From Rhynchopus sp. YZ270_cl-10 (taxonomy: Eukaryota), in contig OZ037846.1 in NCBI GenBank assembly GCA_964035575.1, forward strand, positions 372,001 through 436,000: DNA of 64,000 nucleotides, given 5' to 3'. The notes under the pieces were generated by a model. It saw only the letters and a program-made list of their open reading frames with translations, had not been told where the DNA came from and made no database searches. Below are positions 23,000-43,959 of this stretch, piece by piece. Position 1 is the stretch's first letter. The number at the start of each line of letters is the position of its first letter. Made by a program: the position numbers and the translations under genes.

Positions 23000-24709
23000 T
23001 CACACAAGAGACCACATAAGGAGGGAACCGTCGTGCCCGGCAGTGGCAAGAAGGTTGCTGTCGGGGGAGAACGACGCCTGAGCAACAACAGCGTCGAGGC
23101 CGGTGAGACGTGTGCGCACAGTGCCTGCTGCCGTCCACACGACGACCTCTGCAGTGCCTGCAGCAGCAAAGAGCTGCCCGTCTGCAGAGAGCGTAGCGTG
23201 GTGCAGCACGTGAGAGGGCATCGACACTGCTGCTGACACTGTCGCGACACCCACACCGACAGTCCCGCTTGCCCAACGCGTCATAAGGACAGCACCACTG
23301 TCCATCCCACGTAGCAGCTCACCGCCAGACAGGAATGCCACAGACACCACGCGCGCACCCTCAGAGGCAACAGTGCTTACCTTCGCACCTGTCGCAACGT
23401 CCCATATCTGCACAATCTCGTCCACCTCACTCCCCACCACAGTTGCCAGCAGACTTCCGTCAGGCGAAAACGCCACGTTGCGCGCATGCGCATGGATGAC
23501 AAGGTCCAAGGCACCGTCGTCTGCACGCACAACACGTGTGCTTGGCGCGTTCCCACCCCCACCCGCAAGCAGGCCACCCACACGTGAGTACGCGACCTTA
23601 CGTATCGGCGTGCTGCTGCTCCCCAGGTCGTGCAGGACGTACCGCAGTGCTCCTGTTGCCACATCGCACACCACAGCACGTCCACCCGCACCTGCAACAG
23701 CAACCGACAGTGCGTCCGGCGAGAACACAACGTCGTGCACGGCAAAGTCTGCACACGCAAGCTTCAGCGTCTGCGCGCCTGTCGCACTCTCAAACACACG
23801 CACGCCGTCGTCGCTGCCAGTGGCAAAGTGCATGCCGTCGCTCGAGAACGCAACAGAGAGCACCCTCGCATGGTGCTGCACCTTGAAGCGGCATGTGTCA
23901 GGCAGGCCCCGTGGGCACGTCGTCTTCATCGTGTCCTGCTCTGTGCATGAGGAAGGTGCGCTTGTCGGTGCTGACGTCGGCTGTGCTGGCACTAAAGTGG
24001 GAACAGGTGTCGGCACTGCAGTAGGCTGTGCTGTGGGAACAGAGGTTGGGGCAGCTGTTGTCACAGACGCACACCCTGTCGCTGTCGTGCCTGGTGCCCC
24101 GACGCTGGTCGCGAACTGCGACACAATGTTACCTGCCTCCTTATAAGCGCACATGAGGTGCGCGCGGCTGGAGGCGGCAGAGAGGCACAAACCACACCCG
24201 ACCTCGAGTGTCTCCTTCCACACCACCTGAGAGAAGATCAAGGCGGAGGAATTTTGCGAATTGTGACCGTAGTTGTAGCAGCCTTCCTGCGTGCAGTACC
24301 AGTCCTTCACACCCTCAGCCACGTCCCATCTTGTGACATCTCCACTAGGCACGACCACCGAGGCAAGGTGCTCACCGGGCGCTCTGTTGTACGTAGGGAC
24401 GTCTGTGTCGCAGGTGGTCTGGAAGCCAGAGCTCGAGCTGATATAGTCTGCCAGGGCAGTACTGTACGTCATCGGGCATGCACCGTGCTGTTCCCTGTAC
24501 AGGTTGTGCTGCTCAAGCACACGTGCCACCTGCCAGTTATGCAGCCGATTCGCGCAGTCAAAGACCCCTGGGCAAGACACGAGAAGGACAGGTGGTGCTG
24601 GAGACGGTGTGAAGGCACTGCACCACGACTGCTGCGAGGCACACTGCAAACCCGCAGTGGCACCTCTGCTGAGTGAGAGGGCCAAAAGCAGCACACACAG
24701 GGACCTCAT
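23000..24709 (-). CDS. Secreted CAP/SCP (PR-1-like) domain protein with P/T-rich linker and C-terminal WD40 repeats, 569 aa
   Basis: Signal peptide (MRSLCVLLLALSLSRGATA). CAP motifs HNLYREQHG, GEHLA, FSQVVWKET.EVGCG and CAY..AGN. PTxxPT linker. WD40-like repeats such as VLSVAFSSDGMHFATGSDDG, VAFSPDGSLLAT and SFSPDSNLLATAGHDGSLLMW. Confidence 0.85.
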   Translation of the reverse strand: MRSLCVLLLALSLSRGATAGLQCASQQSWCSAFTPSPAPPVLLVSCPGVFDCANRLHNWQVARVLEQHNLYREQHGACPMTYSTALADYISSSSGFQTTCDTDVPTYNRAPGEHLASVVVPSGDVTRWDVAEGVKDWYCTQEGCYNYGHNSQNSSALIFSQVVWKETLEVGCGLCLSAASSRAHLMCAYKEAGNIVSQFATSVGAPGTTATGCASVTTAAPTSVPTAQPTAVPTPVPTLVPAQPTSAPTSAPSSCTEQDTMKTTCPRGLPDTCRFKVQHHARVLSVAFSSDGMHFATGSDDGVRVFESATGAQTLKLACADFAVHDVVFSPDALSVAVAGAGGRAVVCDVATGALRYVLHDLGSSSTPIRKVAYSRVGGLLAGGGGNAPSTRVVRADDGALDLVIHAHARNVAFSPDGSLLATVVGSEVDEIVQIWDVATGAKVSTVASEGARVVSVAFLSGGELLRGMDSGAVLMTRWASGTVGVGVATVSAAVSMPSHVLHHATLSADGQLFAAAGTAEVVVWTAAGTVRTRLTGLDAVVAQASFSPDSNLLATAGHDGSLLMWSLV

Positions 24710-25188
24710 GGTTGATGTCTCTTTGGTTGTAAAGTAATCCTGTTGTGGGTGTGGATGTGAACGGCATGAAAAGCAGCTGTTTGGCTGTGTCTTTCGGGTT
24801 GCGGGAAGGGATATCTGAACAAATCGAGAATACGTGCAGAACGGGAAGGGGGTCTGTAAGAAAAAAAGTCATAAACTCTTGTTCATGTTCGTGTAGGAAT
24901 AGCAACAAAACTGTCGCTCTGTATATAAATATTATTTCATGCTTTTTGTCACTGGAGAGTCAAGGTTGTCCCGCTCACTGCTTCGAACACACGGTGACAC
25001 AGCTGTTGCCACGTTGCAAAGCCTCACACGCCCAACGTCTTCGAAGCGCAGCAGCAGTGACGTTGCACACAGCACTGTTCCGTGCAGAAACACAGAAATC
25101 CAGAGACTGATGCAGAGACGTGTCACAACGACGTCGTGCACTCTCGTTGGGTAAGTGCCAGATGTAAATCTGAGCAAACACAACAGTG

Positions 25189-26922
25189 CTACTTCACGGA
25201 ACAGATCTGAGAGCAACACACAACACTGCACGTCCCAGAAGGAACTGCGTGTGCTGGTGTGCCAACCCCTCCCGCAGCTGTCCATGCCTTGGCAACGTCA
25301 AGGTCAGACTGCCCACCGCGCAGGTACCCACGCACAGCAGTGTTGTACTCCTCCCAATGCTTCTTCCCACCTATCATGTACATCCACTCGTCAGCTGAAA
25401 CTGCCGTGTTCTCTTGTTTCGCAATCAGTTCCGCCACAACCTGTGCCTCACAGCCAGAAGCAACCTCCACCTTGCACGGAAGCAGACGCAGCTGGTGTTC
25501 GCACTCAGCATCGCTGAAGCACATCCTGTTGCACACCACATCACACCCCAGCATACGCCCCACACGTTCCAGACCGTTCACATCACGCACAAGCTCCCCT
25601 ACCATGCTGAACCGACGCATCACCTCGCAACCCATGTCACCACGCAGCACCTTCCCAGTCGCAACACCAGCATTCACCTTCTCACAAAAGCTGCTCGCAC
25701 CCTTCAGAAGCAGGCTTGCTGCATGCAGTGCAGATGTGGCATGTGTCGCACACTGCTTCGAGGCGTTGAACGAACAGTGGATCCTGTCCCCGATGAACAC
25801 GTCCACCATCCCACGTCTTGTCTCTGTTGCCTGCAGGGTCTTCAGGAGGAGAGTGGTGAAGAAAGAGGAGTAGGTCGCACTGTCCTTCTCCAGCAAATGC
25901 AGGGTGTTCTTCACGTTCAGTGTCAGCAGGGTTGTCATGACCGAGGACAGACCCAGTGGCAGGCACACTGGCATGGTCTCAAGTCTGCAATTAGAGGACT
26001 CTGTGGATGCGTCTGTTGTCTCTGTCAGGTCATCGTGCTCACTGCTCCCTGCGCATGTTCTCTCCACCTCATCCTGAAAAGGCAGACACGTCTTCGGGAG
26101 GTACGCTTTGTACATGCGCAGGTTCTTCTCCAGTCTCCACAGGGCAGCAGTCATCCCCTCAGGCAGGTCACCCCCATGCACGTCCAGCATCTCCGCCACC
26201 TGCTCCACGTCGTACCCCGCAAGAAGCGACGCAATCTCCTGCACAACGCTGATCGTGCGCCTCATTGACTCCTGCTCCTTCAGCACGTCGTGCGCAAACC
26301 TGCGTGTTACGAAGAAGTCGCTCACGAATACAAAAAGTGTGGCGATAAGGTCAAATGGGGGAAATGATGTCTTGCAGGGAAGGAACTCGCAGTCAGTTTT
26401 TTCACTCATGATCGATCTCCGGCTTTTGTGCTCACCTTCGTACGGCAACAACCCAGGAAGGTCAAACAAACCAAACCTGAAGCCTTCTTCACATGCCATC
26501 AGGAGAAGCCACACCACTGTCGCACCCACGAAACCTGCACTGTACCGTGATGGGACTTCCATCACAAGCAACATGTCCACAACCAGGATCAGAAGTGGCC
26601 AGCCAACAAAACCATAAGTACGTGCGTCCAAATCCCACAGGAAAATGCTCACGCTGAAAGAGTACAGGAAGCCCACCACAAATGTGGTGTGCAGTTGCTG
26701 CTTGCAGAGCACCTTAACAATGCCAACGCACCCGCTAAGAACAACGATAGTAGACCCAAGCACGTTCACTGTCTGTACCGTCACATCGTCCTGATGCATC
26801 ATAAATGCCAACACAGTCACGAGGACTGAAACCACACAGAACGCAAACATGATGGTACGCTTCTTCACCTCGTCAGCACTGAGCGACCCGTCAATGGTCA
26901 GTGCGCTGTTCAGGCACCGCAT
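25189..26922 (-). CDS. Multi-pass membrane protein with degenerate class III adenylate/guanylate cyclase-like domain, paralog 1
   Basis: Several N-terminal hydrophobic helices. Cyclase-like motifs LLTLNVKN, GMVDVFIGDRIHCSFN, AGVATGKVLRGDMG and FSMVGELV. First ATG is at 26922; the ORF track starts at a GTG 21 nt upstream. Confidence 0.8.
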   Translation of the reverse strand: MRCLNSALTIDGSLSADEVKKRTIMFAFCVVSVLVTVLAFMMHQDDVTVQTVNVLGSTIVVLSGCVGIVKVLCKQQLHTTFVVGFLYSFSVSIFLWDLDARTYGFVGWPLLILVVDMLLVMEVPSRYSAGFVGATVVWLLLMACEEGFRFGLFDLPGLLPYEGEHKSRRSIMSEKTDCEFLPCKTSFPPFDLIATLFVFVSDFFVTRRFAHDVLKEQESMRRTISVVQEIASLLAGYDVEQVAEMLDVHGGDLPEGMTAALWRLEKNLRMYKAYLPKTCLPFQDEVERTCAGSSEHDDLTETTDASTESSNCRLETMPVCLPLGLSSVMTTLLTLNVKNTLHLLEKDSATYSSFFTTLLLKTLQATETRRGMVDVFIGDRIHCSFNASKQCATHATSALHAASLLLKGASSFCEKVNAGVATGKVLRGDMGCEVMRRFSMVGELVRDVNGLERVGRMLGCDVVCNRMCFSDAECEHQLRLLPCKVEVASGCEAQVVAELIAKQENTAVSADEWMYMIGGKKHWEEYNTAVRGYLRGGQSDLDVAKAWTAAGGVGTPAHAVPSGTCSVVCCSQICSVK

Positions 26923-27453
26923 CGTTGGGCTTTTGATCCTCACAAACCTTTGCTATGTGTGGAGCAGGGGTGATGGATGGAATGTGCACTGGTGGGTGGC
27001 GTGAGGTTTTTCAAAATTTTCTTCCACAACACACGGTTCTTCTTTTCTACTTCATTATAAGACTGTGACGCGTTGCTGACGGCTTGCTTCATTACGCAAA
27101 GACTCAAGAACCTGAGGCCCTACAAGGAGGCGATCATAGGGTTCGTAGGAGGAAGGAGGCCTTCGTCGAGGTAGGTGTGCAGAACAGACACGTCGTTGAA
27201 AGCACATACAAGTGTCCGAGTGGCACAGCACCAAATACAACCCGGTGGTGCCAGGTTAATAACGACCCGCTTGTTCTTCCTCTGAGGGTCGGTCACCCAT
27301 CGGGGGGGGTGTGCAACATGTGGGGTGTTTTAAGAAGAATATTATTACGCGTCCACTCGACGTTTGGATAAAGAAAACGAGAGAAGAAAGGGGGTTTGGG
27401 GGGGGGAAGAGTTTAATTCTTGAACGCATCCCCACACTCAGTCACAGTTTTTC

Positions 27454-27488
<35 letters not shown>

Positions 27489-28042
27489 TGAAAAACACCA
27501 AAACGCTGTTCACAATAATGAACGATAATTTATGTGTGAGAGATGGGGAGCACGGGAGGGAAAAAACGACTCGTGGATACTGAAAAATTTCACTGGAAAT
27601 GCACACATTCAGGCCCTTAGGGTGGTACTTTTTGCTGGTCAGCGGACCAGCAACCTAGGTATTGCTGGTCCGGGTCTAAAAAAAAATAATAACAATAGAT
27701 TTTTTTTGAGATTTTTTTTTGAGAATCCCACCAGAACAGTCGGGTGTGTCACAGATGCAGAGACCCTGGGGGCTCAAGGGTACACCGTGGGAGACCAGAA
27801 CGCGACTCAATTGGTCAAACGCCGAAGGAAAAGGAAGCATGGATGCAGCATGGCGAAATATTGTTTCATATACTAACTATTCTACTGAATAGATGGTATA
27901 ATAGGGTGCACTAAATGTACCCAAACTTTTTTTTTTTACTTTATGTGGATTGTTTGTTTCTGATAGTGACGTGACTCGTTTTTTTATGTTTTTTTTTTGG
28001 AAAAGAAAGTTTCATGTACCCATTAATAAAAGTCCGTGAGGT

Positions 28043-28196
28043 TACAGCCAGTAAAATTTACCTCTTAAAAATAGCATTATCCTCGTTGGTACGGATTATA
28101 TGGGCTGACAATAAAAAGGAGATGGATACAGCCAGTACATTTTACCTCTCCATTAAATGTAGCATTATCCATATAAATACAGATTCTGGGCTGACA
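28043..28196 (-). repeat. Two diverged tandem copies (28043-28110 and 28127-28196) of a ~70-nt putative structured RNA motif
   Basis: Conserved minus-strand blocks UGUCAGCCCA, AAUCYGUA, GGAUAAUGCUA, AGAGGUAAA and UACUGGCUGUA, with variable loops between them. CAGCC/GGCUG closing stem and AUCY/GGAU hairpin in both copies. Confidence 0.6.
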
Positions 28197-28205
28197 CTCG
28201 TTTTA

Positions 28206-28278
28206 GTGGTTTCGAGCTGCCTGCTCCTAGACCACCTCGACAAAAACCCTGCGGCAGCAAACTCATCAGTAGGAGCAA
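28206..28278 (-). ncRNA. Hammerhead ribozyme-like motif (complete core, atypical strand order) downstream of the RT ORF
   Basis: Minus strand: UGCUCCUA-CUGAUGA-GUUUGCUGCC...GGUGGUC^UAGGAGCA-GGCAGCUC-GAAACCACU. Stem I is 8 bp. Stem III is ACCAC/GUGGU. Stem II is G-C plus GCUGCC/GGCAGC. GUC cleavage triplet present. Hammerheads are characteristic of Penelope-like elements. Confidence 0.65.
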
Positions 28279-28642
28279 GGGTTTAAAATATTGAGAGAAA
28301 CACAAACACGAGTTGGGAGGGATGGGAGGGATGGGGGTGAGGCGGGATGTTTGGACTATAGTTTTATCAAATTGACTTCTTCTTTGTTTTTCCAGGTTTT
28401 TTTTGGGGAAAAAGCAATGTTCTCTTTTTTTTTGTTTATTGATATTGTCCACAATATAACCAGTAATTCTCGAGACAATATCCTGTTTTTTTTGTTTTGT
28501 TTTGAAAAGCAAATAAAATCTTTTATTTTTTTTTATTTTTTTTTTTTTTTGAACGCTCTAAAATAAAAGTAAAAAGCTGTGAGATATTTCCCTGGGCTTC
28601 GTAGCTCGCCGCCCTAGCTGTAGTCTAACATATAGTTAGCTA

Positions 28643-31600
28643 CTATTTAATAGCGTCGAACACATGGATACCATGTGCCGAAAGCATGTGTCGTCCAATA
28701 TTTTTTTTTGTAATTTTTCTTCCGTCCCCTAGTTTAGTTTTGTTACATACCGGGCATTTTCCTTCAATGAGGTCTTCTTTTTTATACGTTTTTATTGTTG
28801 TTTGATTCTCTGTGTATTGAACGGGAAATGTTGGAAAGGTATTTTTTTGTTCTTGTAAAACAAGTGCTCTTAGTTCTTTGTCTGTTTTTTGTTTCTTCAG
28901 GTATCGTAGTGCAATGTTAGTAAAAACTTTTTTTTTTCTTTGTAAAAGGTCATCTTGTTGTTGGTCATAATGGTGTATGCTTTTTTTTGTAAAGTTGTAT
29001 AGTTTATACCCTACATCACTAAAGTGACGATAGGTTGTAGTAAAAAATTTACTAGCTGCTTGTATAAGGTATTTTCTTTGATGACCTCGTAATAGCATGT
29101 ACTTCATGATGTTGGCGATATCAAATTTTAGGTCCTCGATGTTGTTATTTATTCTTGTACTTCTCGTTAATTGTCCAATTACAATGCCTTTGGTGATGTG
29201 TAGTGGTTGTGCAGAGTTTGCAGCAGAGTATTTAATAGGTTTAAAAGAACCAAGTTGTTTCTCTTGTGTACCTATTCTTAGTATTTTCACTTCATCATCT
29301 TCGTCATTGTATGTTTCTATACTTATGAGAATACCGAGATACACGGTAGGTTCATCTACACATGTTTGACAGTACTCCATTTCGTATAGGCTTTGTGGTG
29401 GTGGTTCACCGGAAAAGGTTAGAAAATCATCAATATAGCGCGTAAGGTGGCGATATTTTTGTGCTTCTTCTATCTTTTTTTGTGCAATTAAATCTAAAAT
29501 AAAAGTCTTTTCAATTTGGAGGCAAAACGCGTTGGCAATATCAGGGGCAGCAGTACAGCCCATAGGAATTCCTTTGGTCTGTCTATACCACTCCTGTTTT
29601 TGCACATACGCAAAGTCTAAAACAAAGTGAATCATGTCTACAAGTTGTTCTTTTGTAAAAAATTGTTCTCCATCTTTGATATTCTTTTTTTCTTCAAAGA
29701 AAAAAGGTCTTTTTCTATCTCCTTTCCCAGACCTTACAAGAATAATTTCTTCTATGTTTGTTTTTTTTTTCCCGGCCACCCATAAAAAGGTATCGTTGAT
29801 CAGTTGTTTTAGTTCTTTTTTCAATTTTGTATGGCTGAGGTTAGTGTACATATTTTTAAAATCAAAAGTTTTTGGGTTCAATTGACTCAGTTCTTTTTGT
29901 CGTTGTTTCAGTCGAAGTGCTACTTCTTCTGAACTTTCGACAATAAAGAACCATGAGACTCTATGTTGTTCTATGGTCTCTTCGTTGATAGTTTTGTTTT
30001 TTGCAATAATAGTTTTGAGCATAACACTCAGAGTTTGTTGTGCGTGAGTCATGCAGTGGTGGTTCTTTTTTTTTTCATCTTCTTCATTTAATGGGCATTC
30101 TATAGTATTCCTATAGGTAGTACCCACTATAGGTCTCATGCTAACTGGGTTTTTGTGTAGTTTGACTGTTGCATAAAGGTATGGTAAAACGAAAGTGGTT
30201 TTGAATTTGTTTTTTTTGTTGAACATAATTATGTCCTTTACTATATCTTCTTGTGACGTCTGAATTTTTTGAAATGCATTCTCGATATGGTTGTTGAGGT
30301 ATTCGTGATATGCGTATTTACAAATGATTCCGAGGTCATGTGAGGTTTTATCCACTGGAACTATGATAAAGTCTTGCTGCAGTTTTTTTATTTCTCGGCG
30401 TACTACCTTTAGATTTTGTAGATCTGTAGGTGGTAAGTCTTTACAAATGGTGTTCATCATTTCTTGGTTAAGAATCTCTAAAAAATCTTTGTTTTCTTTT
30501 TTTTCCAAAGAGCCACAGTTTTTTCTAACGTACAGTATACAAGCTTGTTCAATTGCATCCATCATCTCTAGCTGGTTATCCTCAATTCTATACTTTCTAC
30601 CCATCTGGAATAGTATTTTGAGTTCCTTAGAAATGAAAGTTGCATTTTTTGCAAGCTCGCATGCATGTCCGTTAAATGTAAAACTAGTTTTTTCTTTGGT
30701 TTGAAAGCATGGGCAGACATGTTGGTCTTCTTTTTTTTTAAAAATATCACAGCTCTCTTTGGTGAAATTACAAAAAATGGTACCTATAGGTTTTTTAAGC
30801 CTGTAGGTAACTCTTGGTTTCTCGAGTATCTCTTTTTTTGGGCACGCTTGAATAATGTGCTGCTTTCTAAAAACTTGGGCAATGTTGTTTTGGTTAAAAC
30901 CTCTGTTGTTGAACTCTATTATGAATTTTGAGCTCGCAATATATTGTTTTCTTTTTGTTTTGATATCTTCAATTTTTATTTCGTTTATTCTTTGTGTGAT
31001 CTTCTTCTCTAGTATTTTTACCTTTTCTGTATACAAATTCCCCACCAGATATATTCTCATCCATTTTTTTGTTCTCATGCACCAATTTTTTGACCACGTA
31101 ACAACAGAGTATTTTTTCAAATCTTGTTTTGTTTTGTTTAAAAGTGAATTGAGTTTTGATCTTATGCCATAGTATCTGTTTTGTTTTGTTTCTTTTTTTA
31201 TATTGATCTGGACTTCACCGTCTTCAATTTTAGCCCAAATTGGAGGTGTGAAATCTTCTTCTTTGTTTCTCCAATTATTTCTTTTGTTTGGGGGGGGTCT
31301 TTTTTGTTTTCTGTTTGGTCTTTGTCTTTTTTTGTTGCGTCTAGGGATATCTGCTTCAGTAAGCGGTGGTTGTGCTTTATTACATTTCAATTTGAAATGT
31401 TTAATCCATGTGCCTTCTGCGACATCCGCGCTTCGTTGAAAATCTTTTGCATTCGTATAAGTATGAGAGGGTATTACCTCCAACACCGCCGGATACAATG
31501 GTCTTCTTCTTTCTTTTAAAAAGTATGCAATACGCATTGTTTTGTACTTGTATTTGCATTGCTCAAAATGTTGTTTTGCACGCTCTTGTGCTGTACAGGA

Positions 31601-32629
31601 GGTTTTTCCTACATATACAGGTGATCCTTTTTCATCCACGAGACAATATATAACACCATGAGTGTCTATTGATTTGTTTTGAGTATCGGTAAGTTTTCTT
31701 TTTGCAAGACCTTTTTTTATCGCATCTTTGTTTTTTTCGTAAAATAGGGTTCGTACTTGATCTCCTTCTTTTCTCCATTGATCGACATCAATTGTCCATG
31801 ATTTTTGTTCATCGGCAATCTGTTGTCTTATTTTTTTTAAAAAAGGCTCAAGCTGTATTCTTTGAAATTCTTCTTCCATTTTTAGTATTTGTTTTTTTTG
31901 TATTTTTTGCTCGTCTGCTTTTTTTATGATATGATGGAGTCTTTGTTTATTTTCAACAAGTTGTTCTCTTTGTTCTTTTTTTTTGGCTTGTAAACGTGCT
32001 AAACTCACTGTATGTCTTACATTTAACATATTCATTTCGAAAAGATGTTCTTCTTCTTCTTTTTTAGCTTGTTGTTTACACCATGATATTTCGCTTTGTA
32101 GCTCTATATTTTTGTTTTTTTGTTCTTCAATTTCTTTTTTCCAATGTTCGTATTGTCTAGCGTGTCTATTGTACATATTTATTGTTCTTGTAGTTATTCT
32201 CTGGCTCAAAGTATAGCTATGTCTTAGATGATTCGCTTGACGTCGATACGATTCAGCTCGTCTCTCACTTCTTCTTAAAGATGTACTGAGTTGTTCATAT
32301 GACATTGGAGGGTTAGACTGTACGGAAGAAAATTCCGTAGTTGTAGCGCTAAAGGGGGTAGGAGGAAGGGGAATCTCGTGGGGGAGGGGAGGTGGCGTTC
32401 GGGGTGGGGAGTCACTATCATGCGAGTTAGGGGGTTGTGTATCATGGTTTGTAGTAAAAGTTGAACCGGCCGTTGACGATGGCGCCGAGTTCTCGCCCTC
32501 GGTTTTTCCAAAAGTAGGTAGTAGATTTTTACAGGTCAATAAGACTCCCCAGGCCTTATCAACCTGGCTCGCTTTTTTTTTATAGAATGCACTGAGCTGC
32601 TTCTGGTAGGCTTTTCCGTTGCATACCAT
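28643..32629 (-). CDS. Penelope-like element polyprotein (Naiad/Chlamys type): coiled coil, N-terminal GIY-YIG endonuclease, reverse transcriptase, C-terminal C2H2-like finger, about 1328 aa
   Basis: GIY-YIG motif GVIYCL...VYVGKT...ERAKQH precedes the RT. Naiad-like linker CPC...GHA...GRKYR and VPVDK....ICK..Y. RT motifs KLHKNPVSMRPIV, FDFKNMYTNL, YRQTKGIPMG..AAPDIAN and RYIDD. C-terminal CPVC...HMLSAH. First ATG is 32629; the frame stays open to about 32752. Confidence 0.92.
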   Translation of the reverse strand: MVCNGKAYQKQLSAFYKKKASQVDKAWGVLLTCKNLLPTFGKTEGENSAPSSTAGSTFTTNHDTQPPNSHDSDSPPRTPPPLPHEIPLPPTPFSATTTEFSSVQSNPPMSYEQLSTSLRRSERRAESYRRQANHLRHSYTLSQRITTRTINMYNRHARQYEHWKKEIEEQKNKNIELQSEISWCKQQAKKEEEEHLFEMNMLNVRHTVSLARLQAKKKEQREQLVENKQRLHHIIKKADEQKIQKKQILKMEEEFQRIQLEPFLKKIRQQIADEQKSWTIDVDQWRKEGDQVRTLFYEKNKDAIKKGLAKRKLTDTQNKSIDTHGVIYCLVDEKGSPVYVGKTSCTAQERAKQHFEQCKYKYKTMRIAYFLKERRRPLYPAVLEVIPSHTYTNAKDFQRSADVAEGTWIKHFKLKCNKAQPPLTEADIPRRNKKRQRPNRKQKRPPPNKRNNWRNKEEDFTPPIWAKIEDGEVQINIKKETKQNRYYGIRSKLNSLLNKTKQDLKKYSVVTWSKNWCMRTKKWMRIYLVGNLYTEKVKILEKKITQRINEIKIEDIKTKRKQYIASSKFIIEFNNRGFNQNNIAQVFRKQHIIQACPKKEILEKPRVTYRLKKPIGTIFCNFTKESCDIFKKKEDQHVCPCFQTKEKTSFTFNGHACELAKNATFISKELKILFQMGRKYRIEDNQLEMMDAIEQACILYVRKNCGSLEKKENKDFLEILNQEMMNTICKDLPPTDLQNLKVVRREIKKLQQDFIIVPVDKTSHDLGIICKYAYHEYLNNHIENAFQKIQTSQEDIVKDIIMFNKKNKFKTTFVLPYLYATVKLHKNPVSMRPIVGTTYRNTIECPLNEEDEKKKNHHCMTHAQQTLSVMLKTIIAKNKTINEETIEQHRVSWFFIVESSEEVALRLKQRQKELSQLNPKTFDFKNMYTNLSHTKLKKELKQLINDTFLWVAGKKKTNIEEIILVRSGKGDRKRPFFFEEKKNIKDGEQFFTKEQLVDMIHFVLDFAYVQKQEWYRQTKGIPMGCTAAPDIANAFCLQIEKTFILDLIAQKKIEEAQKYRHLTRYIDDFLTFSGEPPPQSLYEMEYCQTCVDEPTVYLGILISIETYNDEDDEVKILRIGTQEKQLGSFKPIKYSAANSAQPLHITKGIVIGQLTRSTRINNNIEDLKFDIANIMKYMLLRGHQRKYLIQAASKFFTTTYRHFSDVGYKLYNFTKKSIHHYDQQQDDLLQRKKKVFTNIALRYLKKQKTDKELRALVLQEQKNTFPTFPVQYTENQTTIKTYKKEDLIEGKCPVCNKTKLGDGRKITKKNIGRHMLSAHGIHVFDAIK

Positions 32630-33659
32630 AAACGGACACACTTTTTTTTTGGTGGTTACAGTGTCATTAACCCGCTTTAAATAACCTACTTGCTCACCCT
32701 TGTTATTTCTATCATTTTTTTGTTGTCTCTTTTTTTGCTTTTTTGTTTTGTTTTACTTTTTCTTTTTTTTTTACTTCTTCCTTCTTTTTGAAAATACTCC
32801 GTGCAAAACTGACAGTACTGCTGTCTTGTCAGCTGCGAAATAAAAAAAAATAGCGTACCGTACGCCTGCGGCGCAATCTTGCCAACCCACCTTCCTATGA
32901 CATAGTTTGACAGTTAAAATGTGCCATTTTAAGGGAATTTTTTTGAAATCTTGCGTACCGTGGTTTCGCCTGGAACCTTTGGGTGCCATGACCGCCGCTT
33001 CTTTTATAGATGTACTGAGGTTACTGATAAGAAGGCTGACACCCACTACGGCTCGCGGTTCACCCTCCCCACCCGCCTTTCACGATTTTGTGCATCAGAG
33101 GGGAGAAAGCGCGTCACCTCCCTGCAGTGGCAGGGAGTCTTTTTTTACCACTGTGTGCTTTTCACCTGTTTTTTGCATTGACCAGCAAACCGGGTTTGGA
33201 CCAGCAGTTGGCGGCTACCCCCCTGACCACCCTAAGGCCCTGGCACACATGTCTTATAAAAACATAAAAAGTGAATTTCATAACCACACCAAAACCATAC
33301 CAAAATAAAAATAAAAATGCAGGAGGTCACTGTCCAATGCATAGCTTCGACAGCGACACTCCGGCGGCGCGAAAGACGCCCCCTCATCACCCCCCACAAG
33401 AAAAAGTCTAGGGTACTGTAGACACGCAACACAGATTCTGAAGCTCAAAGAACCAACGACTCTATAATATTCGACTCACACACTTCGCTGCACATTCGCT
33501 AGATGTGACACTGTACACCTGTTGCTTGGTGTTGAATAACGTCGCCTTTGTGCTGCAGAAACACAGAAACACAGAGACTGATGCAGAGATGTATCACAAC
33601 GACGTCGTGCACTCTCGTTGGGTAAGTGCCAGATGTAAATCTGAGCAAACACAACAGTG

Positions 33660-35396
33660 CTACTTCACGGAACACATCTGAGAGCAACACACAACACTGC
33701 ACGTCCCAGAAGGAACTGCGTGTGCTGGTGTGCCAACCCCTCCCGCAGCTGTCCATGCCTCAGCAACATCAAGGTCAGACTGCTCACCACGCAGGTACCC
33801 ACGCACGGCAATGTTGTACTCCTCCCAATGCTTCTCCCCACCTATCATGTACATCCACTCGTCAACTGCTTCTTCTGCATCACTCAACTGAGACATCACT
33901 TCCGCCACAACCTGTGCCTCACAACCAGAGGCAACCTCCACCTTGCACGGAAGCAGACGCAGCTGGTGTTCGCACTCAGCATCGCTGAAGCATATCCTGT
34001 TGCACACCACATCACACCCCAGCATACGCCCCACACGTTCCAGACCGTTCACATCACGCACAAGCTCCCCCACCATGCTGAACCGACGCATCACCTCACA
34101 ACCCATGTCACCACGCAGCACCTTCCCAGTCGCAACACCAGCATTCACCTTCTCACAAAAGCTGCTCGCACCCTTCAGAAGCAGGCTTGCTGCATGCAGT
34201 GCAGATGTGGCATGTGTCGCACACTGCTTCGAGGCGTTGAACGAACAGTGGATCCTGTCCCCGATGAACACGTCCACCATCCCACGTCTTGTCTCTGTTG
34301 CCTGCAGGGTCTTCAGGAGGAGAGTGGTGAAGAAAGAGGAGTAGGTCGCACTGTCCTTCTCCAGCAAATGCAGGGTGTTCTTCACGTTCAGTGTCAGCAG
34401 GGTTGTCATGACCGAGGACAGACCCAGTGGCAGGCACACTGGCATGGTCTCAAGTCTGCAATTAGAGGACTCTGTGGATGCGTCTGTTGTCTCTGTCAGG
34501 TCATCGTGCTCACTGCTCCCTGCGCATGTTCTCTCCACCTCATCCTGAAAAGGCAGACACGTCTTCGGGAGGTACGCTTTGTACATGCGCAGGTTCTTCT
34601 CCAGTCTCCACAAGGCAGCAGTCATCCCCTCAGGCAGGTCACCCCCATGCACGTCCAGCATCTCCGCCACCTGCTCCACGTCGTACCCCGCAAGAAGCGA
34701 CGCAATCTCCTGCACAACGCTGATCGTGCGCCTCATTGACTCCTGCTCCTTCAGCAAATTGTGCGCAAACCTGCGTGTCACGAAGAAGTCGATCAGGAAG
34801 ACAGCAAGAGTGGAAGTCAAGTTAATTGGGGGAAATGGTGTCTTGCAGGGCAAGAACTCACAGTTTACCCTTTCTGTAACAACCGCTCTCCTGCTGTGTT
34901 CACCTTCGTACGGCAACAACCCAGGAAGGTCAAACAAACCAAACCTGAAGGATTCCTCACATGCCATCAGGAGAAGCCACACCATTGTCGCACCCACGAA
35001 ACCTGCACTGTACCGTGATGGGACTTGCATCACAAGCAACATGTCCACAACCACGATGAGAAGTGGCCAGCCAACAAAACCATAAGTACGTGCATCCAAA
35101 TCCCACATGAAGATTCCAATGCCAGCGATGTACATAACGCCCACCACAAACGTGGTGTGCAGTTGCTGCTTGCAGAGCACCTTAACAATGGGAACAGACG
35201 CAACTGTAACGACTATGCAAGATCCGAGCTCGTTAACTATCCGGTATTGCACGTCGGTCCTCCCCTGATGAAAAACAGAAAAAGCCAGGGTAGATACTAC
35301 TGAAACCACACAGAACACAAACATGATGGTGCGCTTCTTCACCTCGTCAGCACTGAGAGACCCGTCAATGGTCAGTGCGCTGTTCAGGCACCGCAT
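33660..35396 (-). CDS. Multi-pass membrane cyclase-like protein, paralog 2
   Basis: Same architecture and near-identical cyclase-like domain to paralog 1. ATG at 35396. Confidence 0.8.
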   Translation of the reverse strand: MRCLNSALTIDGSLSADEVKKRTIMFVFCVVSVVSTLAFSVFHQGRTDVQYRIVNELGSCIVVTVASVPIVKVLCKQQLHTTFVVGVMYIAGIGIFMWDLDARTYGFVGWPLLIVVVDMLLVMQVPSRYSAGFVGATMVWLLLMACEESFRFGLFDLPGLLPYEGEHSRRAVVTERVNCEFLPCKTPFPPINLTSTLAVFLIDFFVTRRFAHNLLKEQESMRRTISVVQEIASLLAGYDVEQVAEMLDVHGGDLPEGMTAALWRLEKNLRMYKAYLPKTCLPFQDEVERTCAGSSEHDDLTETTDASTESSNCRLETMPVCLPLGLSSVMTTLLTLNVKNTLHLLEKDSATYSSFFTTLLLKTLQATETRRGMVDVFIGDRIHCSFNASKQCATHATSALHAASLLLKGASSFCEKVNAGVATGKVLRGDMGCEVMRRFSMVGELVRDVNGLERVGRMLGCDVVCNRICFSDAECEHQLRLLPCKVEVASGCEAQVVAEVMSQLSDAEEAVDEWMYMIGGEKHWEEYNIAVRGYLRGEQSDLDVAEAWTAAGGVGTPAHAVPSGTCSVVCCSQMCSVK

Positions 35397-35906
35397 CGTT
35401 GGGCTTTTGATCCTCACAAACCTTTGCTATGTGTGGAGCAGGGGTGTGTGGATGTGTGTTGTGTGCACTGGTGGGTGGTGTGGTTAATGTCAGGTTAATA
35501 ACGATAGGCAATTCTCCTCTTGCTGCTCCTCTGAGGACCCACGACACCACATGCCAGCGTGATGTGGTAAAAACGATGACATGTACCACATATCACGACA
35601 TGTGAAATGACATGTACCACAGGTCATTATGACATGCTAGCTCACACATCATTGTGGCACGATACTGACATGAGGGGTGCACTTTAGAACACGGAGGGGG
35701 GCTGGGACAAAAATATGGGGAAGACTGCTGCCTCTTTTTGAGAATCTGTTGGATGATGTGCTGCTTACGACGCAAAAGGCGTCACTTTCCAAAATATTGG
35801 TTTTACAGCAACACCCCGGCGGCACTAGAGCCACCCCCCTCACCACCCCACAAGAAAAAGGCTAGTATACTCTACACTCATTCCCCCCCCCTCTGCTTCC
35901 AACACA

Positions 35907-37841: not shown

Positions 37842-39587
37842 CTACTTCACGGAACACATCTGAGAACAACACACAACACTGCACGTCCCGGAAGGAACTG
37901 CGTGTGCTGGTGTGCCAACCCCTCCCGCAGCTGTCCATGCCTCAGCAACGTCAAGGTCAGACTGCTCACCAAGTAGGTACCCACGCACGGCAGTGTTGTA
38001 CTCCTCCCAATGCTTCTTCCCACCTATCATGTACATCCACTCGTCAGCTGAAACTGCTGTGTCCTCTTGTTTTGCAATAAGTTCCGCCACAACCTGTGCC
38101 TCACAACCAGAGGCAACCTCCACCTTGCACGGAAGCAGACGCAGCTGGTGTTCGCACTCAGCATCGCTGAAGCACATCCTGTTGCACACCACATCACATC
38201 CCAGCATACGCCCCACACGTTCCAGCCCGTTCACATCACGCACAAGCTCCCCCACCATGCTGAACCGACGCATCACCTCACAACCCATGTCACCACGCAG
38301 CACCTTCCCAGTCGCAACACCAGCATTCACCTTCTCACAAAAGCTGCTCGCACCCTTCAGAAGCAGGCTTGCTGCGTGCAGTGCAGATGTGGCATGTGTC
38401 GCACACTGCTTCGAGGCGTTGAACGAACAGTGGATCCTGTCCCCGATGAACACGTCCACCATCCCACGTCTTGTCTCTGTTGCCTGCAGGGTCTTCAGGA
38501 GGAGAGTGGTGAAGAAGGAGGAGTAGGTCGCACTGTCCTTCTCCAGCAAATGCAGGGTGTCCTTCACGTTCAGTGTCAGCAGGGTTGTCTTGACCGAGGA
38601 CAGACCCAGTGGCAGGCACACTGGCATGGTCTCATTTCTCGAATGTGAGGACTCTGTGGATGTGTCTGTTATCTCTGTCACATCTCCGTCGTGTTCACCC
38701 CCGTCGCTCTCTGAGTCCACCTTCTCCACCTCATCCTGAAAAGGCAGACACGTCTTCGGGAGGTACGCTTTGTACATGCGCAGGTTCTTCTCCAGTCTCC
38801 ACAGGGCAGCAGTCATCCCCTCAGGCAGGTCACCCCCATGCACGTCCAGCATCTCCGCCACCTGCTCCACGTCGTACCCCGCAAGAAGCGACGCAATCTC
38901 CTGCACAACGCTGATCGTGCGTCTCATTGACTCCTGTTCCTTCAGCACGTTGTGTGCAAACCTGCGTGTCACGAAGAAGTCGATCAGGAAGACAAAAAGT
39001 GTGGAAGCGAAGCCAAGTGGGGGAAATGACGTCTTGCAGGGAAGGAACTCGCAGTCTATCTTTTCCAGAATCAACGCTCTCCTGCTGTGTTCACCTTCGT
39101 GCGGTGGCAACCCAGGAAGGTCAAACAAACCAAACCTGAAGGATTCCTCACACCCTATGAGAAACAACCACACCACTGTTGCACCCACGAACCATGCACT
39201 GTACCGTGATGGGACTTCCATCACAAGCAACATGTCCACAACCAGGATCAGCATTGGCCAGCTCATTAAACCATAAGTGCGTGCGACTAAATCCCACATA
39301 AAAATTGCAATGCCAGCGATGTACATGATGCCCACCACAAACGTGGTGTGCAGTTTCTGCTTGCAGAGCAGCTTAACAATGGCAACAAACCCCGTTGTAA
39401 GGACTATGCAAGACGCGAATACGTTAACAATCCGGTGTTGCACGTTGGTACTCCCCTTGTGAGAAACAAAAACAACCAGAATCGCAAATACTGAAACCAC
39501 ACAGAACACAAACATGATGGTGCGCTTCTTCACCTCGTCAGCACTGAGAGACCCGTCAATGGTCAGTGCGCTGTTCAGGCACCGCAT
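37842..39587 (-). CDS. Multi-pass membrane cyclase-like protein, paralog 3
   Basis: Same architecture as paralogs 1 and 2, with shared 5' flank (cacatagcaaaggtttgtgAGgatc...ATG). ATG at 39587. Confidence 0.8.
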   Translation of the reverse strand: MRCLNSALTIDGSLSADEVKKRTIMFVFCVVSVFAILVVFVSHKGSTNVQHRIVNVFASCIVLTTGFVAIVKLLCKQKLHTTFVVGIMYIAGIAIFMWDLVARTYGLMSWPMLILVVDMLLVMEVPSRYSAWFVGATVVWLFLIGCEESFRFGLFDLPGLPPHEGEHSRRALILEKIDCEFLPCKTSFPPLGFASTLFVFLIDFFVTRRFAHNVLKEQESMRRTISVVQEIASLLAGYDVEQVAEMLDVHGGDLPEGMTAALWRLEKNLRMYKAYLPKTCLPFQDEVEKVDSESDGGEHDGDVTEITDTSTESSHSRNETMPVCLPLGLSSVKTTLLTLNVKDTLHLLEKDSATYSSFFTTLLLKTLQATETRRGMVDVFIGDRIHCSFNASKQCATHATSALHAASLLLKGASSFCEKVNAGVATGKVLRGDMGCEVMRRFSMVGELVRDVNGLERVGRMLGCDVVCNRMCFSDAECEHQLRLLPCKVEVASGCEAQVVAELIAKQEDTAVSADEWMYMIGGKKHWEEYNTAVRGYLLGEQSDLDVAEAWTAAGGVGTPAHAVPSGTCSVVCCSQMCSVK

Positions 39588-40959
39588 CGTTGGGCTTTTG
39601 ATCCTCACAAACCTTTGCTATGTGTGGAGCAGGGGTGTGTGGATGTGTCTTGTGTGCACTGGTGGGTGGTGTGGTTAATGTTAGGTTAATAACGGTGCTG
39701 CAACCCAAACAGACGTGCCTTCTACCAGAGACCTATAGTGATATATGCATTGGCTACTGATCACGACATGGACGTGAGGGACCTGCTGCTTAATTGGCAC
39801 CGTCGCATCTTCACCGAGGTGAGAAGTGGCGACACCCGCTTGAACATTGTCAACGCTGCAGCGGGCGAGGTTTCGCAAGGAGTGGCATTGCAACAACAAT
39901 GTGTGAACCGTTTTCACGTACCCCATATGTTGGCTATCTGGAGCCGCATGGTTGTGGTGTAAGGGTTACCTGCGATGCAGAAGACGGTGCGAGGCAAAAT
40001 GTCCAGGATGTTGGAAGGGAGTGAAGTTGGTGGGGTCGCGTACTTATTACGGCCCGCGGGAAAATAAAATAAAATGGACACGTTCCCTAAGGCCATCGCA
40101 GATCGTGTGAACGAGGAGGAGAACAAACCCAACATGCGGCGCGTGTACACGGCACAGGAGGTTAGGCAGGTGTACGATTATGGTCGTCAGGATGGGGCAG
40201 CGATCGCAGCCAGAAAGTAAGCGCAGGGGCAATCTCTGCCCAATGTAAAAAGGCCGAGGGCCAACACACAACACCGAGACAAATACCAGAAACCCTTCCC
40301 ACTCACCTTAGATAATATTTTTTTGGGAAAAGTCACTTAGTGCCCAAGTTTGTTGTACCCATTTAGGATAATACCCAGTGGGTATTATCCTAAATTATTT
40401 GGGTATTATCCTAAATTATTTTGGGTATTATCCTAAATTATTTTTGGGTACTGGGTACTGGGTACTGGGTACTGGGTACTGGGTACTGGGTACTGGGTAC
40501 TGGGTACTGGGTACTGGGTACTGGGTACTGGGTACTGGGTACTGGGTACTGGGTACTGGGTACTGGGTACTGGGTACTGGGTACCCAGAACGAAGGCACC
40601 TTGACAGCAGCGAAGGCAAGACAAGGTATGTACCGGGTAAATACGTAACTTTCTGGTGAATATTCAACAAAATAATTGCGCTTTCTTCGCCCCAAGGTGT
40701 GGCAGAGCCTACTGACTCTGGGCTGACGACAAAAGGGGACATGCCCCCCCCCCCCCGTTTTTTTGTAGTGGAACATTTCACAACGACGTTTCACAACCAC
40801 ACAACCATCACAGGATTGTGAGATCTGAACTGCATGCACAATTGCGATGAGAACCTTAGCCGGTCACAAGAAACTGAAATGGTATGACATTCACCCTCTA
40901 CCTCCCCCCCCACAGTTACTTTTAGTTGAGCCTTTTAATTAGTATTTTTTTAAAAAATA

Positions 40960-43959
40960 ATGGATGACATTGTCAAGTTGGCGGAATCGCTGGAGCGGTT
41001 TTCCCGTATGGTGGAGCAAGGATTGCTGTCTGTTTCGGAGTTTGAAGCGCTGAAAGTGCAGTGTTACGAGAGGACGTGGGGCCTGCAAATGGGAATCGGT
41101 GCTCAGACGCCACAGCTTGCCCCTGTTAGTGCTCAAACGTCACAGATTGCCCCCAAACTGAGGTCGCAGGCACGTACCAGGACCCCAGTTACTGATGACA
41201 CACCGCCGCCTACCGCCAACCCACCTGCTACGATGTCGCCTGCGCCGCCTGCTCCGCCTGCCAGAAAGCCGCGTACCCCGTCTACCCCGAACCCAGCCTC
41301 CGCGAACGTGTCTCTCCCGTCCACGAACCCAGCCTCCGCGAACGTGTCTCTCCCGTCTTCGACGAACTCAGCTTCCACGAACCTGCCTGCCAGAAGCCCT
41401 CCTGTCAGGTCTTCTGCGAACCTGCGCTCTACTTCTTCCACAACATCATCTGCCATGAACCCGCCTGCATCTGCCATGAACCCGCCTGCATCTGCCATGA
41501 ACCCGCCTGCATCTGCCATGAACCCGCCTGCCAACAACGTGCCTCCTCAGCCTGCGGCCCACTCGCCCACCACAGCGGCAGTCTCCAGCGCCTCTACTCA
41601 CCTCAATGGGGCAACATTCGGGGAAATGACGAATCTGCGGAACTTCGTCATTGCGGCAATAATGAGGGATAAGAAGAAGATGCGTGCGTGCAGGAGTGAC
41701 AAAACCAGGTGGGAAGTTGTTTGCTCTGGCGTTGTCGGGACAGGGGAAGAACAGCAGAAGTGTGCATGGTTCGTGAAGGTGAAGAAGCAAAAGGCAGCTG
41801 ATGGTGGCTTGTTCGAAGTGTCTTGCCCGTATGATCACACGTGCCTAGGTCCTGTTACGGACAAGTCGGAGCGCTTCACCGGAAGGAACGTCCGCACCAC
41901 CCACAAGGACGCTCTCGCAAGCGCGAGCCACACTCCGGCTCAGGTGCAGGCCAACGCTGCAGGGAACCCGAGGTACGGCGTGGCGCGCCGGGCCATAATG
42001 GCCAGCGTGAAGGAGAGGTGGGGTTCCGGGGAGGATAGTTGGAGGCAGGTTCCCAACTACCTGCTCAAGTTGGAGGAGGCTGACGCTGCGACGAAGACCT
42101 ACCACGGCACTGGTTTGGTCGTCGAGGGGCCTTTTATTTGCTTTGGTGCGGCACAGAAGGCATTACCGCATCTCGCGCCGGTTTATGCGGCAGATGCAAC
42201 GCACTGCGACGGCGAGGGGGCAACAGGCGTTCTCTTTTTTTTTGTTGGGGTCGATCCTCTAAGTAGGATTTACCCTCTCAGTATGATGTGGGCCCCAGCA
42301 GAGAATGGCGACTGTTGGAAGCAGTTCTTGACGCAAACTGCAAAGGCACTGGGATTATCTGCGGGCGGCACCCTCTACACCGACCACTTTAAGGGTATAG
42401 AAAGTACCGTTGCTTCGGTTCTCCCCCTTTTCGTGCATTTGCTGTGCGGTACTCACCTCAAGAGAACCGTCGCCAAATTCGGGAAGGACACCGTGGAGAA
42501 GTTTTCGTTGCTGGAGCGTTGTACGACCCACAGGGCGTTCAATGAGATACTGGCGGCGATCGGGAAGAAGAGCTCCGCGGCCAAGGAGTACCTGCACCGT
42601 TACGCGCCGATGTTTGCGGACGTGAAGGTGCCGACGACGACAGTACGTGCATACCATTATGGTACCAACGTTGCAGAAAGCTGCAACAACTGGATGGGGG
42701 CACGCCGTCACTTGCCGATTCTTGGGGTATTGGATTCGTTTCGGGTAAAGTGCATGGAGATGTTTGCAACGAGGCGTAAGGAATCGGAGAACCTGGTTGA
42801 TGTCGAGTTGACTCCATTTTTTCGGTCCAAAATTGAGTTATTATGCAATGATGCACAAACTTTTCGTGTCACCCCCTCTAGTGATACGGAGTACGAGGTG
42901 AAGAAGCGCGCCGAGAACGTGAACGCCGCACGCTACAAAGTGGTGATCCCGCTGACGGAGAGCGACAGAGGGCAGGCATCCTGCAGTTGTCCGCACTTGC
43001 AGGTGCACAAGATGTGCGTCCACTTTGTTGCCGCACTCGTGTTCTCCGGGAAGCAGGTGGATCTCTTCGTTCCTTCGTTCATGCGGAACTCGGCCCTCAA
43101 GGCAGTCTACTCCCACGGCATCCCCCCCATCGACATCGAAGAACTCGACGCTGACCACTCCAAGAACGCGCCCATACTTCATGTGAAAAGACCTGGACGC
43201 CCTAGGGTGAAGCGGATGAGGGTCAACAACGAGCACGTACACAGCAGCGCCTCCTCCGCCAAAAGAGTGAAGCTGGCCACCAGCAACCCCCCATCATGCC
43301 CCATGCCTTCAGACGCAGTTGCCAGGCCAGCCCTGGATTCGGACCCTGATATCAGGGTCCCAATCACCAGGCACGTTCGGGGTGGGGAGCACCGTGCCGA
43401 GTACGAGTGCGGGTGGGCGTGCATGAACTGGGTTCTGCACCACGTTGGGGAGGAGAGAATTCTATATTCTCTTGCCCACAACGTACAGTCCCACCTGTCC
43501 GGCAGTCTCGCGAGTTTGGGGGACCAGTCCGAGGAGGAGCTGCTGGGGGGGAATTTCTCCGTGAGCACCATCATGCTCATCCTCCTCAGCCGCGGTGTGC
43601 TGGTGAGCCATGCGGACGTGCCGTCGAACCCCAGGGCTCTTGTGGGGTACCTCATGGGGCCGCAGCAAGGAGGGCATCCTCACTGGGTGACTGGGCTTGA
43701 GGATGAAGCGGGGTCCGGGTACCGGATTATGGACACGGACGAACCGGAGCAGGTCATGACATTCCGGCAACTGCAGAGTGAATTTGCTGCATGGGAGATT
43801 TTTTCAGTTCAGGTGATGGAGCAGATGACGGTCGCGCAGCTGAAGGAAGAAGCATCCGGTCGAATGCCGGACACGCGTTTGCCAACCCTGAAAGCTGATC
43901 TTGTCAGGGCTCTGGCACAGAGCGCCGTTAACGTGTGCCCCATTCTTAGAAGGCCTTAG
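40960..43959 (+). CDS. MULE (Mutator-like) DDE transposase with SWIM finger, plus SHOCT-like N-terminus, Josephin-like protease and SAP domain, 999 aa
   Basis: DDE triad in AADATH, YTDHFKG and NVAESCN, with CxxH (CGTH). SWIM motif CSC......MCVH. N-terminal LERFSRMVEQGLLSVSEFEALK. C817 (CGWACMN), GNFSV, H908 (HW) and D925. C-terminal MTVAQLKEE...LKADLVRAL. Confidence 0.88.
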   Translation: MDDIVKLAESLERFSRMVEQGLLSVSEFEALKVQCYERTWGLQMGIGAQTPQLAPVSAQTSQIAPKLRSQARTRTPVTDDTPPPTANPPATMSPAPPAPPARKPRTPSTPNPASANVSLPSTNPASANVSLPSSTNSASTNLPARSPPVRSSANLRSTSSTTSSAMNPPASAMNPPASAMNPPASAMNPPANNVPPQPAAHSPTTAAVSSASTHLNGATFGEMTNLRNFVIAAIMRDKKKMRACRSDKTRWEVVCSGVVGTGEEQQKCAWFVKVKKQKAADGGLFEVSCPYDHTCLGPVTDKSERFTGRNVRTTHKDALASASHTPAQVQANAAGNPRYGVARRAIMASVKERWGSGEDSWRQVPNYLLKLEEADAATKTYHGTGLVVEGPFICFGAAQKALPHLAPVYAADATHCDGEGATGVLFFFVGVDPLSRIYPLSMMWAPAENGDCWKQFLTQTAKALGLSAGGTLYTDHFKGIESTVASVLPLFVHLLCGTHLKRTVAKFGKDTVEKFSLLERCTTHRAFNEILAAIGKKSSAAKEYLHRYAPMFADVKVPTTTVRAYHYGTNVAESCNNWMGARRHLPILGVLDSFRVKCMEMFATRRKESENLVDVELTPFFRSKIELLCNDAQTFRVTPSSDTEYEVKKRAENVNAARYKVVIPLTESDRGQASCSCPHLQVHKMCVHFVAALVFSGKQVDLFVPSFMRNSALKAVYSHGIPPIDIEELDADHSKNAPILHVKRPGRPRVKRMRVNNEHVHSSASSAKRVKLATSNPPSCPMPSDAVARPALDSDPDIRVPITRHVRGGEHRAEYECGWACMNWVLHHVGEERILYSLAHNVQSHLSGSLASLGDQSEEELLGGNFSVSTIMLILLSRGVLVSHADVPSNPRALVGYLMGPQQGGHPHWVTGLEDEAGSGYRIMDTDEPEQVMTFRQLQSEFAAWEIFSVQVMEQMTVAQLKEEASGRMPDTRLPTLKADLVRALAQSAVNVCPILRRP

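Follow-up and report, generated by a model that had tools for sequence, protein, structure and literature searches.

The 3' untranslated region (UTR) of an intact Penelope-like retroelement in a 64,000-nucleotide stretch of the Rhynchopus sp. YZ270_cl-10 genome (contig OZ037846.1, positions 372,001 to 436,000, referred to here as the window) contains the catalytic letters of a hammerhead ribozyme in an unfamiliar strand order. This locus raises the question of what kind of RNA is encoded here and what such an RNA would do for the element that carries it. As judged from its letters and pairing, the motif is probably a four-helix hammerhead fold of the order CSG, which a Chlamys-like Penelope element carries in its 3' UTR and which would cut the RNA of the element after C28230.

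The hallmarks of a hammerhead, a CUGANGA core, a GAAA and an NUH triplet, are all present on the minus strand (Table 1). The CUGAUGA at 28269-28263 is presumed to correspond to C3 to A9 in standard hammerhead numbering. Stems I, II and III flank this core, with the pairs G10.1-C11.1 and A15.1-U16.1 in place. Stem III is formed between 28236-28231 and 28210-28205 through five Watson-Crick pairs and an outer G-U pair. Stem II starts with the G28262-C28214 pair, is broken after this first pair by an internal loop (a U-U mismatch and two extra U residues) and resumes as a 6/6 Watson-Crick helix between 28258-28253 and 28221-28216. In a pairing script run over 400 nt, the top partner of every strand is the proposed one; for the 5' strand of stem I, the runner-up partner scores 5 versus 8. 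A previous sequence-only reading of this DNA had listed the catalytic elements and stems, and the pairing script confirms them at the same minus-strand coordinates. That reading had also joined stems I and II end to end, in agreement with the direct succession of A28222 and G28221. In contrast, the 17 nt that it described as a plain linker conceal a fourth helix, here called helix P, in which 28250-28244 pairs with 28284-28278 at seven of seven positions; the motif really spans 28284-28205. Helix P ties stems I and II together, and its 5' strand lies directly upstream of stem I. Hammerhead chemistry places the cut after H17, which here is C28230, and cleavage is predicted between C28230 and U28229.

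Table 1 Features of the window and of related loci (window coordinates unless a locus is named).
Feature	Position	Strand	Basis or detail
Type-CSG hammerhead, full four-helix candidate	28205..28284	-	Sequence, pairing, shuffles; layout matches CSG-1/CSG-2 (PMC10085705, accessible part)
Helix P 5' strand	28278..28284	-	Partner 28244-28250; 7/7 Watson-Crick
Stem I 5' strand	28270..28277	-	8/8 Watson-Crick with 28222-28229
Core CUGAUGA, block C	28263..28269	-	Sequence
Stem II 5' strand	28253..28262	-	G10.1 = 28262, three internal-loop U, distal 6-bp helix 28258-28253
Helix P 3' strand	28244..28250	-	Pairing script
Unpaired 7-nt linker, helix P to stem III	28237..28243	-	Pairing script
Block S: stem III 3' strand plus GUC triplet	28230..28236	-	GUC = 28232-28230
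Stem I 3' strand	28222..28229	-	Pairing script
Stem II 3' strand	28214..28221	-	Abuts stem I, linker 0 nt
GAAA (28213-28210) and stem III 5' strand, block G	28205..28213	-	Pairing script
Intact ORF, 1369 codons, Chlamys-like Penelope-like element	28643..32752	-	First Met 32629
N-terminal GIY-YIG endonuclease	31391..31657	-	Pfam PF01541, E 1.8e-7, 31.8 bits vs cut-off 22.6
CxC motif, between endonuclease and RT	30707..30715	-	Motif reading
RT core, KLHK to YIDD	29426..30163	-	Motif reading
17-bp inverted repeat, left end of 5.6-kb unit enclosing element	27610..27626		Sequence
17-bp inverted repeat, right end	33226..33242		Sequence; 16/17 complementary
Split-form loci	L001, L003, L005, L006, L008, L012, L014, L016, L023, L026, L035, L041, L051, L062, L066		
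Split form, example	L003 4313-4415		With same fourth helix, behind Chlamys-like RT

In the accessible text of Eckert et al. 2023 (PMC10085705), hammerheads are divided into three blocks named C, S and G. Each of these blocks is uninterrupted in the window motif, and their order is CSG; none of the orders of the nested types I-III (CGS, GSC, SCG) is found. The window motif is a real candidate for a type CSG, non-circularly permuted hammerhead, of a topology that is already published and in a host that is new. The sequence-only reading correctly recognized a crossing order outside types I-III, and its view that this order was undescribed does not hold, as type CSG has been shown to cleave (PMC10085705). 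The accessible part of that article describes the type from two unique soil-metagenome DNA sequences, named CSG-1 and CSG-2, that lack a known host; both were transcribed from single-motif templates and cleaved in vitro where predicted, with rates of 0.004 and 0.026 per min, respectively. Its authors found no type CSG when they looked in known-organism genomes, and they rate the evidence for its biological relevance as weaker. Because all catalytic letters and four helices of the window motif stand in the published order, the motif is likely to be self-cutting, and the cleavage of CSG-1 and CSG-2 makes such activity quite probable by analogy.

Sequencing contigs from other runs show how the motif is conserved. 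A 262-nt contig of run X6 spans it without a single difference, and a 288-nt X7 contig does so with one difference and one gap, which argues that the motif is no assembly slip. A diverged family is represented by one contig each in X6 and X7 (two studies). These contigs match the window at 28206-28283 only and have unrelated flanks, and the conserved island thus ends at the edge of the four-helix fold. Each diverged contig has nine substitutions and three gaps relative to the window motif; seven of the nine are listed per contig, all within 28236-28251, and with two substitutions and most gaps unplaced in each, retention of the helices throughout is not claimable. Most of the listed differences fall in the linker at 28237-28243. 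In the diverged X7 contig, the end pair of helix P has apparently changed from A-U to G-C, with both sides altered (one contig).

The motif is located on the same strand as the ORF, 359 nt past its stop codon. As the sequence-only reading had supposed, the host is of the Naiad/Chlamys type: the GIY-YIG, CxC, DK and RT motifs are found in one ORF, with the endonuclease N-terminal to the RT. The endonuclease has neither the CxxC/CCHH finger nor the CX2-5CxxC linker that characterize Naiads, and the lack of both fingers with retention of R, H, E and N is the Chlamys pattern, as defined in the available portion of Craig et al. 2021 (PMC8557442). The fingers insertion that marks the Naiad/Chlamys clade is present as well: motifs A and B of the RT are separated by 98 residues, versus 84-86 in three Naiad-type proteins (P0001-P0003), the only comparison set. 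The ORF is extended at its C-terminus, and this extension closes with a C2H2-like motif (28673-28756, minus strand); related loci likewise have 230-610 residues beyond the RT match. No Pfam family was matched with the whole ORF as query, no RT family was matched with the RT region, and a PDB profile search gave nothing better than E 0.27-0.58. At E <=0.001, 1270 database proteins match the RT region; the best nine representatives include four named Diplonema papillatum proteins (31-36% identity) and five that are unnamed or "hypothetical". In a FastTree tree of 92 sequences, built from unnamed loci and database proteins without named Chlamys references and with 6 of 80 loci omitted for short matches, the window RT groups with the Diplonema papillatum proteins (support 0.997), the nearest relatives with a name, which suggests a diplonemid host. 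Two proteins of this species, P0011 and P0017, are related GIY-YIG/RT elements whose database names are those of a kinesin or a ubiquitin hydrolase. P0011 has matches to kinesin, GIY-YIG and RT, likely because gene models were fused or a domain was captured. No pseudo-LTR or second copy of the 3' region is found within the window, a result that concerns this insertion alone.

The element is enclosed in a 5.6-kb unit (27610-33242) that is bounded by inverted repeats, has short subterminal repeats at both ends and is flanked by an 8-nt direct repeat, the left copy of which is one base off. In this it resembles the non-autonomous DNA transposons of the hAT type. At 27608, loose ends of run X3 open with sequence resembling that at 33251, the pattern expected of an empty site. 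Downstream of the ribozyme motif, 27797-27928 is a short high-copy repeat (X3 contig depth >1e6 versus ~3e3 nearby), and two ~72-nt copies with 75% identity (28040-28110 and 28124-28196) are directly adjacent to the motif. The unit sits between the first two copies of a tandem gene family (25189-26952, 33660-35426 and 37842-39617) of ~590 aa with several predicted membrane stretches; no confident Pfam match was obtained for this family, the C-terminal part of which we take to recall adenylate-cyclase-like proteins. The window further contains a 408-bp satellite (2427-22634, 49.5 copies, 99% alike), a minus-strand gene that fuses a CAP domain with WD40 repeats (23000-24868) and a plus-strand ORF of 1001 codons (40954-43959), the motifs of which presumably recall a Mutator-type transposase with a SWIM finger.

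Relatives of the RT carry a related arrangement. From 220 metagenome stretches that encode RT relatives, 80 loci were kept, and type CSG is found in none of the 80. At a four-helix score of at least 21 (thresholds were fixed post hoc, and the cut-off was raised from 19 to 21 once results were known), 14 of the 80 loci have, behind the RT and in sense orientation, what is here called the split form, versus none in antisense orientation and 0.35 per shuffled set. In a 15th hit, L006, the split form lies upstream of the ORF, and one more case with a bulge was recognized by eye (L022). Restricting the count to the 43 loci whose 3' flank is 1 kb or longer leaves 14 with the split form and 29 with no accepted hit. 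The 14 loci belong to a handful of related groups and are therefore not 14 independent cases. In the split form, the stem II 5' strand comes first, followed by a helix P strand, S, G, the other helix P strand, a stem I strand and CUGANGA. Read from its predicted pairing, this form keeps the wiring of CSG and places the opening between A9 and G10.1, within the catalytic block that Eckert et al. (PMC10085705, accessible part) assumed cannot be interrupted. The G10.1-C11.1 and A15.1-U16.1 pairs are present in 15 of 15 split hits, in which the core and GAAA were imposed by the search. In anchored counts, pairs 2 and 4 of stem I and pairs 2-5 of stem II show several pair types; these counts lean to pairing because the hits were selected for pairing. 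A MAFFT alignment of 16 split stretches placed the helices out of register and was excluded from the pair counts. The clade of those split-form loci that the tree includes adjoins the group of the window and Diplonema papillatum in the FastTree tree, the root of which is unreliable, and four split-form or neighbouring loci that retain the N-terminus encode a finger-less GIY-YIG endonuclease as in the window. No RT relatives were found in viral contigs. Three other candidates were rejected: the split form as a plain SGC hammerhead (of five positions after CUGANGA, only 1-4 pair with the strand that precedes GAAA), an extra gap-closing helix in the split form (own pairs -2.55 versus crossed pairs -2.28, sd 1.72 kcal/mol) and a borderline GCS hit inside the ORF of L032, dismissed as chance.

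The CSG fold itself is observed in Naiad consensuses. According to the available portion of Craig et al. 2021 (PMC8557442), Naiads and most Chlamys elements are without canonical hammerheads, the exceptions being two Chlamys subclades; eight families are marked "HHR_half_core", with core halves 35-50 nt apart, and no euglenozoan Naiad or Chlamys member is listed there. The consensus files of that study were read by eye over CTGATGA matches 26-58 of 62, CGAAAC matches 60 of 81 and six 3' ends, with each Naiad record named after the header that follows it and its place in the metadata sheet. Within this portion, the four-helix CSG fold is present in at least 8 of 54 Naiad consensuses and in four of the eight half-core families. 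The carriers are Naiad_Parc, Naiad-1/2/3_Nbra, Naiad_Hcon, Naiad_Hpol, a record that by its place should be Naiad_Ppac and the spider Naiad_Smim; seven of the eight nematode Naiad families are thus covered, Asuum being outside the matches viewed. The core, GAAA, G10.1-C11.1 and A15.1-U16.1 are kept in all eight, and the helices differ in sequence between families and all pair. The split form was recognized by eye in the half-core family Ovul, in Amil, Aacu, Anas and Obim, and in two further records. Among the other half-core families, Naiad-3_Dst and Esco are ambiguous by eye and Naiad-4_Dst is not among the names viewed. In green-algal Chlamys elements, neither the CSG nor the split form occurs among the matches viewed, indicating that the motif is not universal.

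To reach the active fold, the hairpins of helix P and stem III would form first, and their loops would then pair as stems I and II. Folding programs that score nested structures only, with pseudoknots outside their scoring, favour helix P and stem III (~0.8), both of which are non-crossing; per-pair probabilities in helix P are 0.45-0.81, and stems I and II receive ~0.18 and 0, respectively. The minimum-energy nested fold includes a competing hairpin within the stem III loop, and the nested folding z-score of the motif, -0.52, is not unusual. The competing hairpin, together with a weak proximal stem II (stem II is weaker here than in other CSG examples, as measured by the pairing script), counts against the preferred reading and would suit an alternative in which the fold is real and conserved, cutting is slow or protein-dependent, and the motif is mainly a structured 3' element for RT binding or end protection, with cutting unneeded for jumping. 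This alternative is also in line with the slow published CSG rates (PMC10085705, accessible part), with the absence of the motif from many related elements, and with the Anolis Penelope element, in which, per the accessible part of that report (PMC11167929), the hammerhead cut only with protein, no RNA ends were detected at its cut site, and hammerhead mutants did not lower insertion in vitro. It is nevertheless considered unlikely, as catalytic letters, beyond the helices, are kept in the 15 split hits and the eight CSG Naiads.

A strand-swapped dimer between two RNA copies, as in minimal type I Penelope hammerheads, is a further possibility. Metazoan Penelope-like hammerheads appear to be made for dimers (PMC4209133, accessible part), and a monomer could come under strain where stems I and II meet at a zero-length joint. 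In the window motif, however, stem III is a full 6-bp helix and no palindromic stub, there is one copy only in the window, and CSG-1 and CSG-2 cleaved from single-motif templates (PMC10085705, the accessible part of which does not distinguish monomer from dimer). Helix P and the direct joint would moreover take the place of the loop-loop contact seen in ordinary hammerheads, which would make a second copy unnecessary. The dimer is thus judged very improbable, and the monomeric four-helix fold is preferred.

Chance was evaluated with shuffled and natural sequences. The bare motif order appears a single time in the window, and 4 of 100 shuffles contain it too. When three helices of at least 4 bp are added, it is found in 4 of 300 shuffles, and with helices of at least 6, 5 and 5 bp, in 0 of 300. 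The window motif has a four-helix score of 27, with a descriptor whose stem II offset was widened until this motif was recovered, and 0 of 200 shuffles equal it; a score of 21 is reached by 11 hits over the 200 shuffles (both counts on the 41-kb non-satellite part, both strands). Among the matches listed for viral contigs, 0 of 121 same-order loci score at least 21, and the best CSG score is 16. An arrangement of short motifs by chance in an AT-rich UTR, to which the bare-order shuffles and the post hoc thresholds lend something, is close to refuted by the empty shuffle sets once helices are required, by these natural loci, and by the conserved island and the same fold in relatives, and is given almost no weight.

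If the four-helix hammerhead cuts as predicted, the 5' piece would bear one strand each of stems I, II and III; their partners would be on the 3' piece. Strand bookkeeping in this way upholds the earlier proposal that all three stems hold both products. With ~20 bp across three helices, the cut pieces would stay together and religation would be favoured. From a transcript that is tandem or reads through, two cuts would release a unit-length RNA, the ends of which would be the two halves of one ribozyme. Such paired RNA ends may, tentatively, favour joining into a circle that serves as template; circles were proposed for Penelope hammerhead elements by Cervera and de la Pena 2014 (PMC4209133, accessible part). 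As a single copy without a pseudo-LTR, the window copy alone gives no two-cut monomer.

A broader reading, conceivable although we stop short of calling it probable, is that Naiad/Chlamys elements do have hammerheads, in hosts that range over diplonemids, nematodes, spiders, corals and octopuses, and that these share a single knotted four-helix wiring opened at different places, as CSG in the window, nematodes and a spider and as the A9/G10.1 split elsewhere. Because three helices hold the cut ends in both forms, the ribozyme would act as an RNA end-joiner, in the service of circular templates. If this is true, type CSG gains its first known host, and the gap left by Naiads that "lack hammerheads" closes. 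In the literature surveyed (largely open-access, with subscription papers and bioRxiv supplements mostly outside), no link between non-circular hammerheads and Penelope-like elements was found. An intact retroelement in an assembled eukaryote genome would give the host-less type CSG a host and a job. The reported absence from Naiad/Chlamys had backed the idea that hammerheads may merely parasitise Penelope elements, and conserved knotted hammerheads in Naiad/Chlamys tails argue that nested descriptors missed them. Consistent with the earlier expectation that standard descriptors would overlook the motif, Rfam has no hammerhead match in the window, up to E=10, nor in eight split-form loci. Standard searches would undercount the self-cleaving RNAs of eukaryote genomes. 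The candidate RNA is 80 nt long and open to direct testing.

The window element and its motif can be compared with four known systems, each as described in the accessible parts of the reports cited. Like the Naiad/Chlamys elements of Craig et al. 2021 (PMC8557442), the window element has an N-terminal GIY-YIG endonuclease, CxC and DK motifs and a long A-B spacing, and its core halves are 49 nt apart, comparable to the 35-50 nt of the "HHR_half_core" families; it differs from them in the lack of a pseudo-LTR in this copy and in the added C2H2-like C-terminal extension. The minimal type I hammerheads of canonical Penelope elements (PMC4209133) likewise have their core on the sense strand of the element, within its UTR or terminal-repeat region. 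They are, in contrast, nested, have a stub stem III, are thought to need a dimer and hold their products by stem I alone. Type SGC (HRIMA-1 and variants, PMC10085705) has the same closed knotted wiring with a helix between stems I and II, opened elsewhere. It is known from 583 metatranscriptome sequences, is tied to hairpin-ribozyme circular RNAs and, unlike the window motif, yields a 5' product that holds a stem III strand alone. Finally, CSG-1 and CSG-2 (PMC10085705) share no helix sequence with the window motif, which alone has an internal loop in stem II, a longer linker before stem III and a 0-nt linker, versus 5 nt, between the 3' strands of stems I and II; the RNAMotif descriptor of Eckert et al. 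(linker 0-10 nt, continuous stem II) would miss it. What these two RNAs have in common with the window motif is the C-S-G order, the full core, the GUC site and a fourth helix (7 bp in the window), the 5' strand of which lies just before stem I and the 3' strand after stem II.
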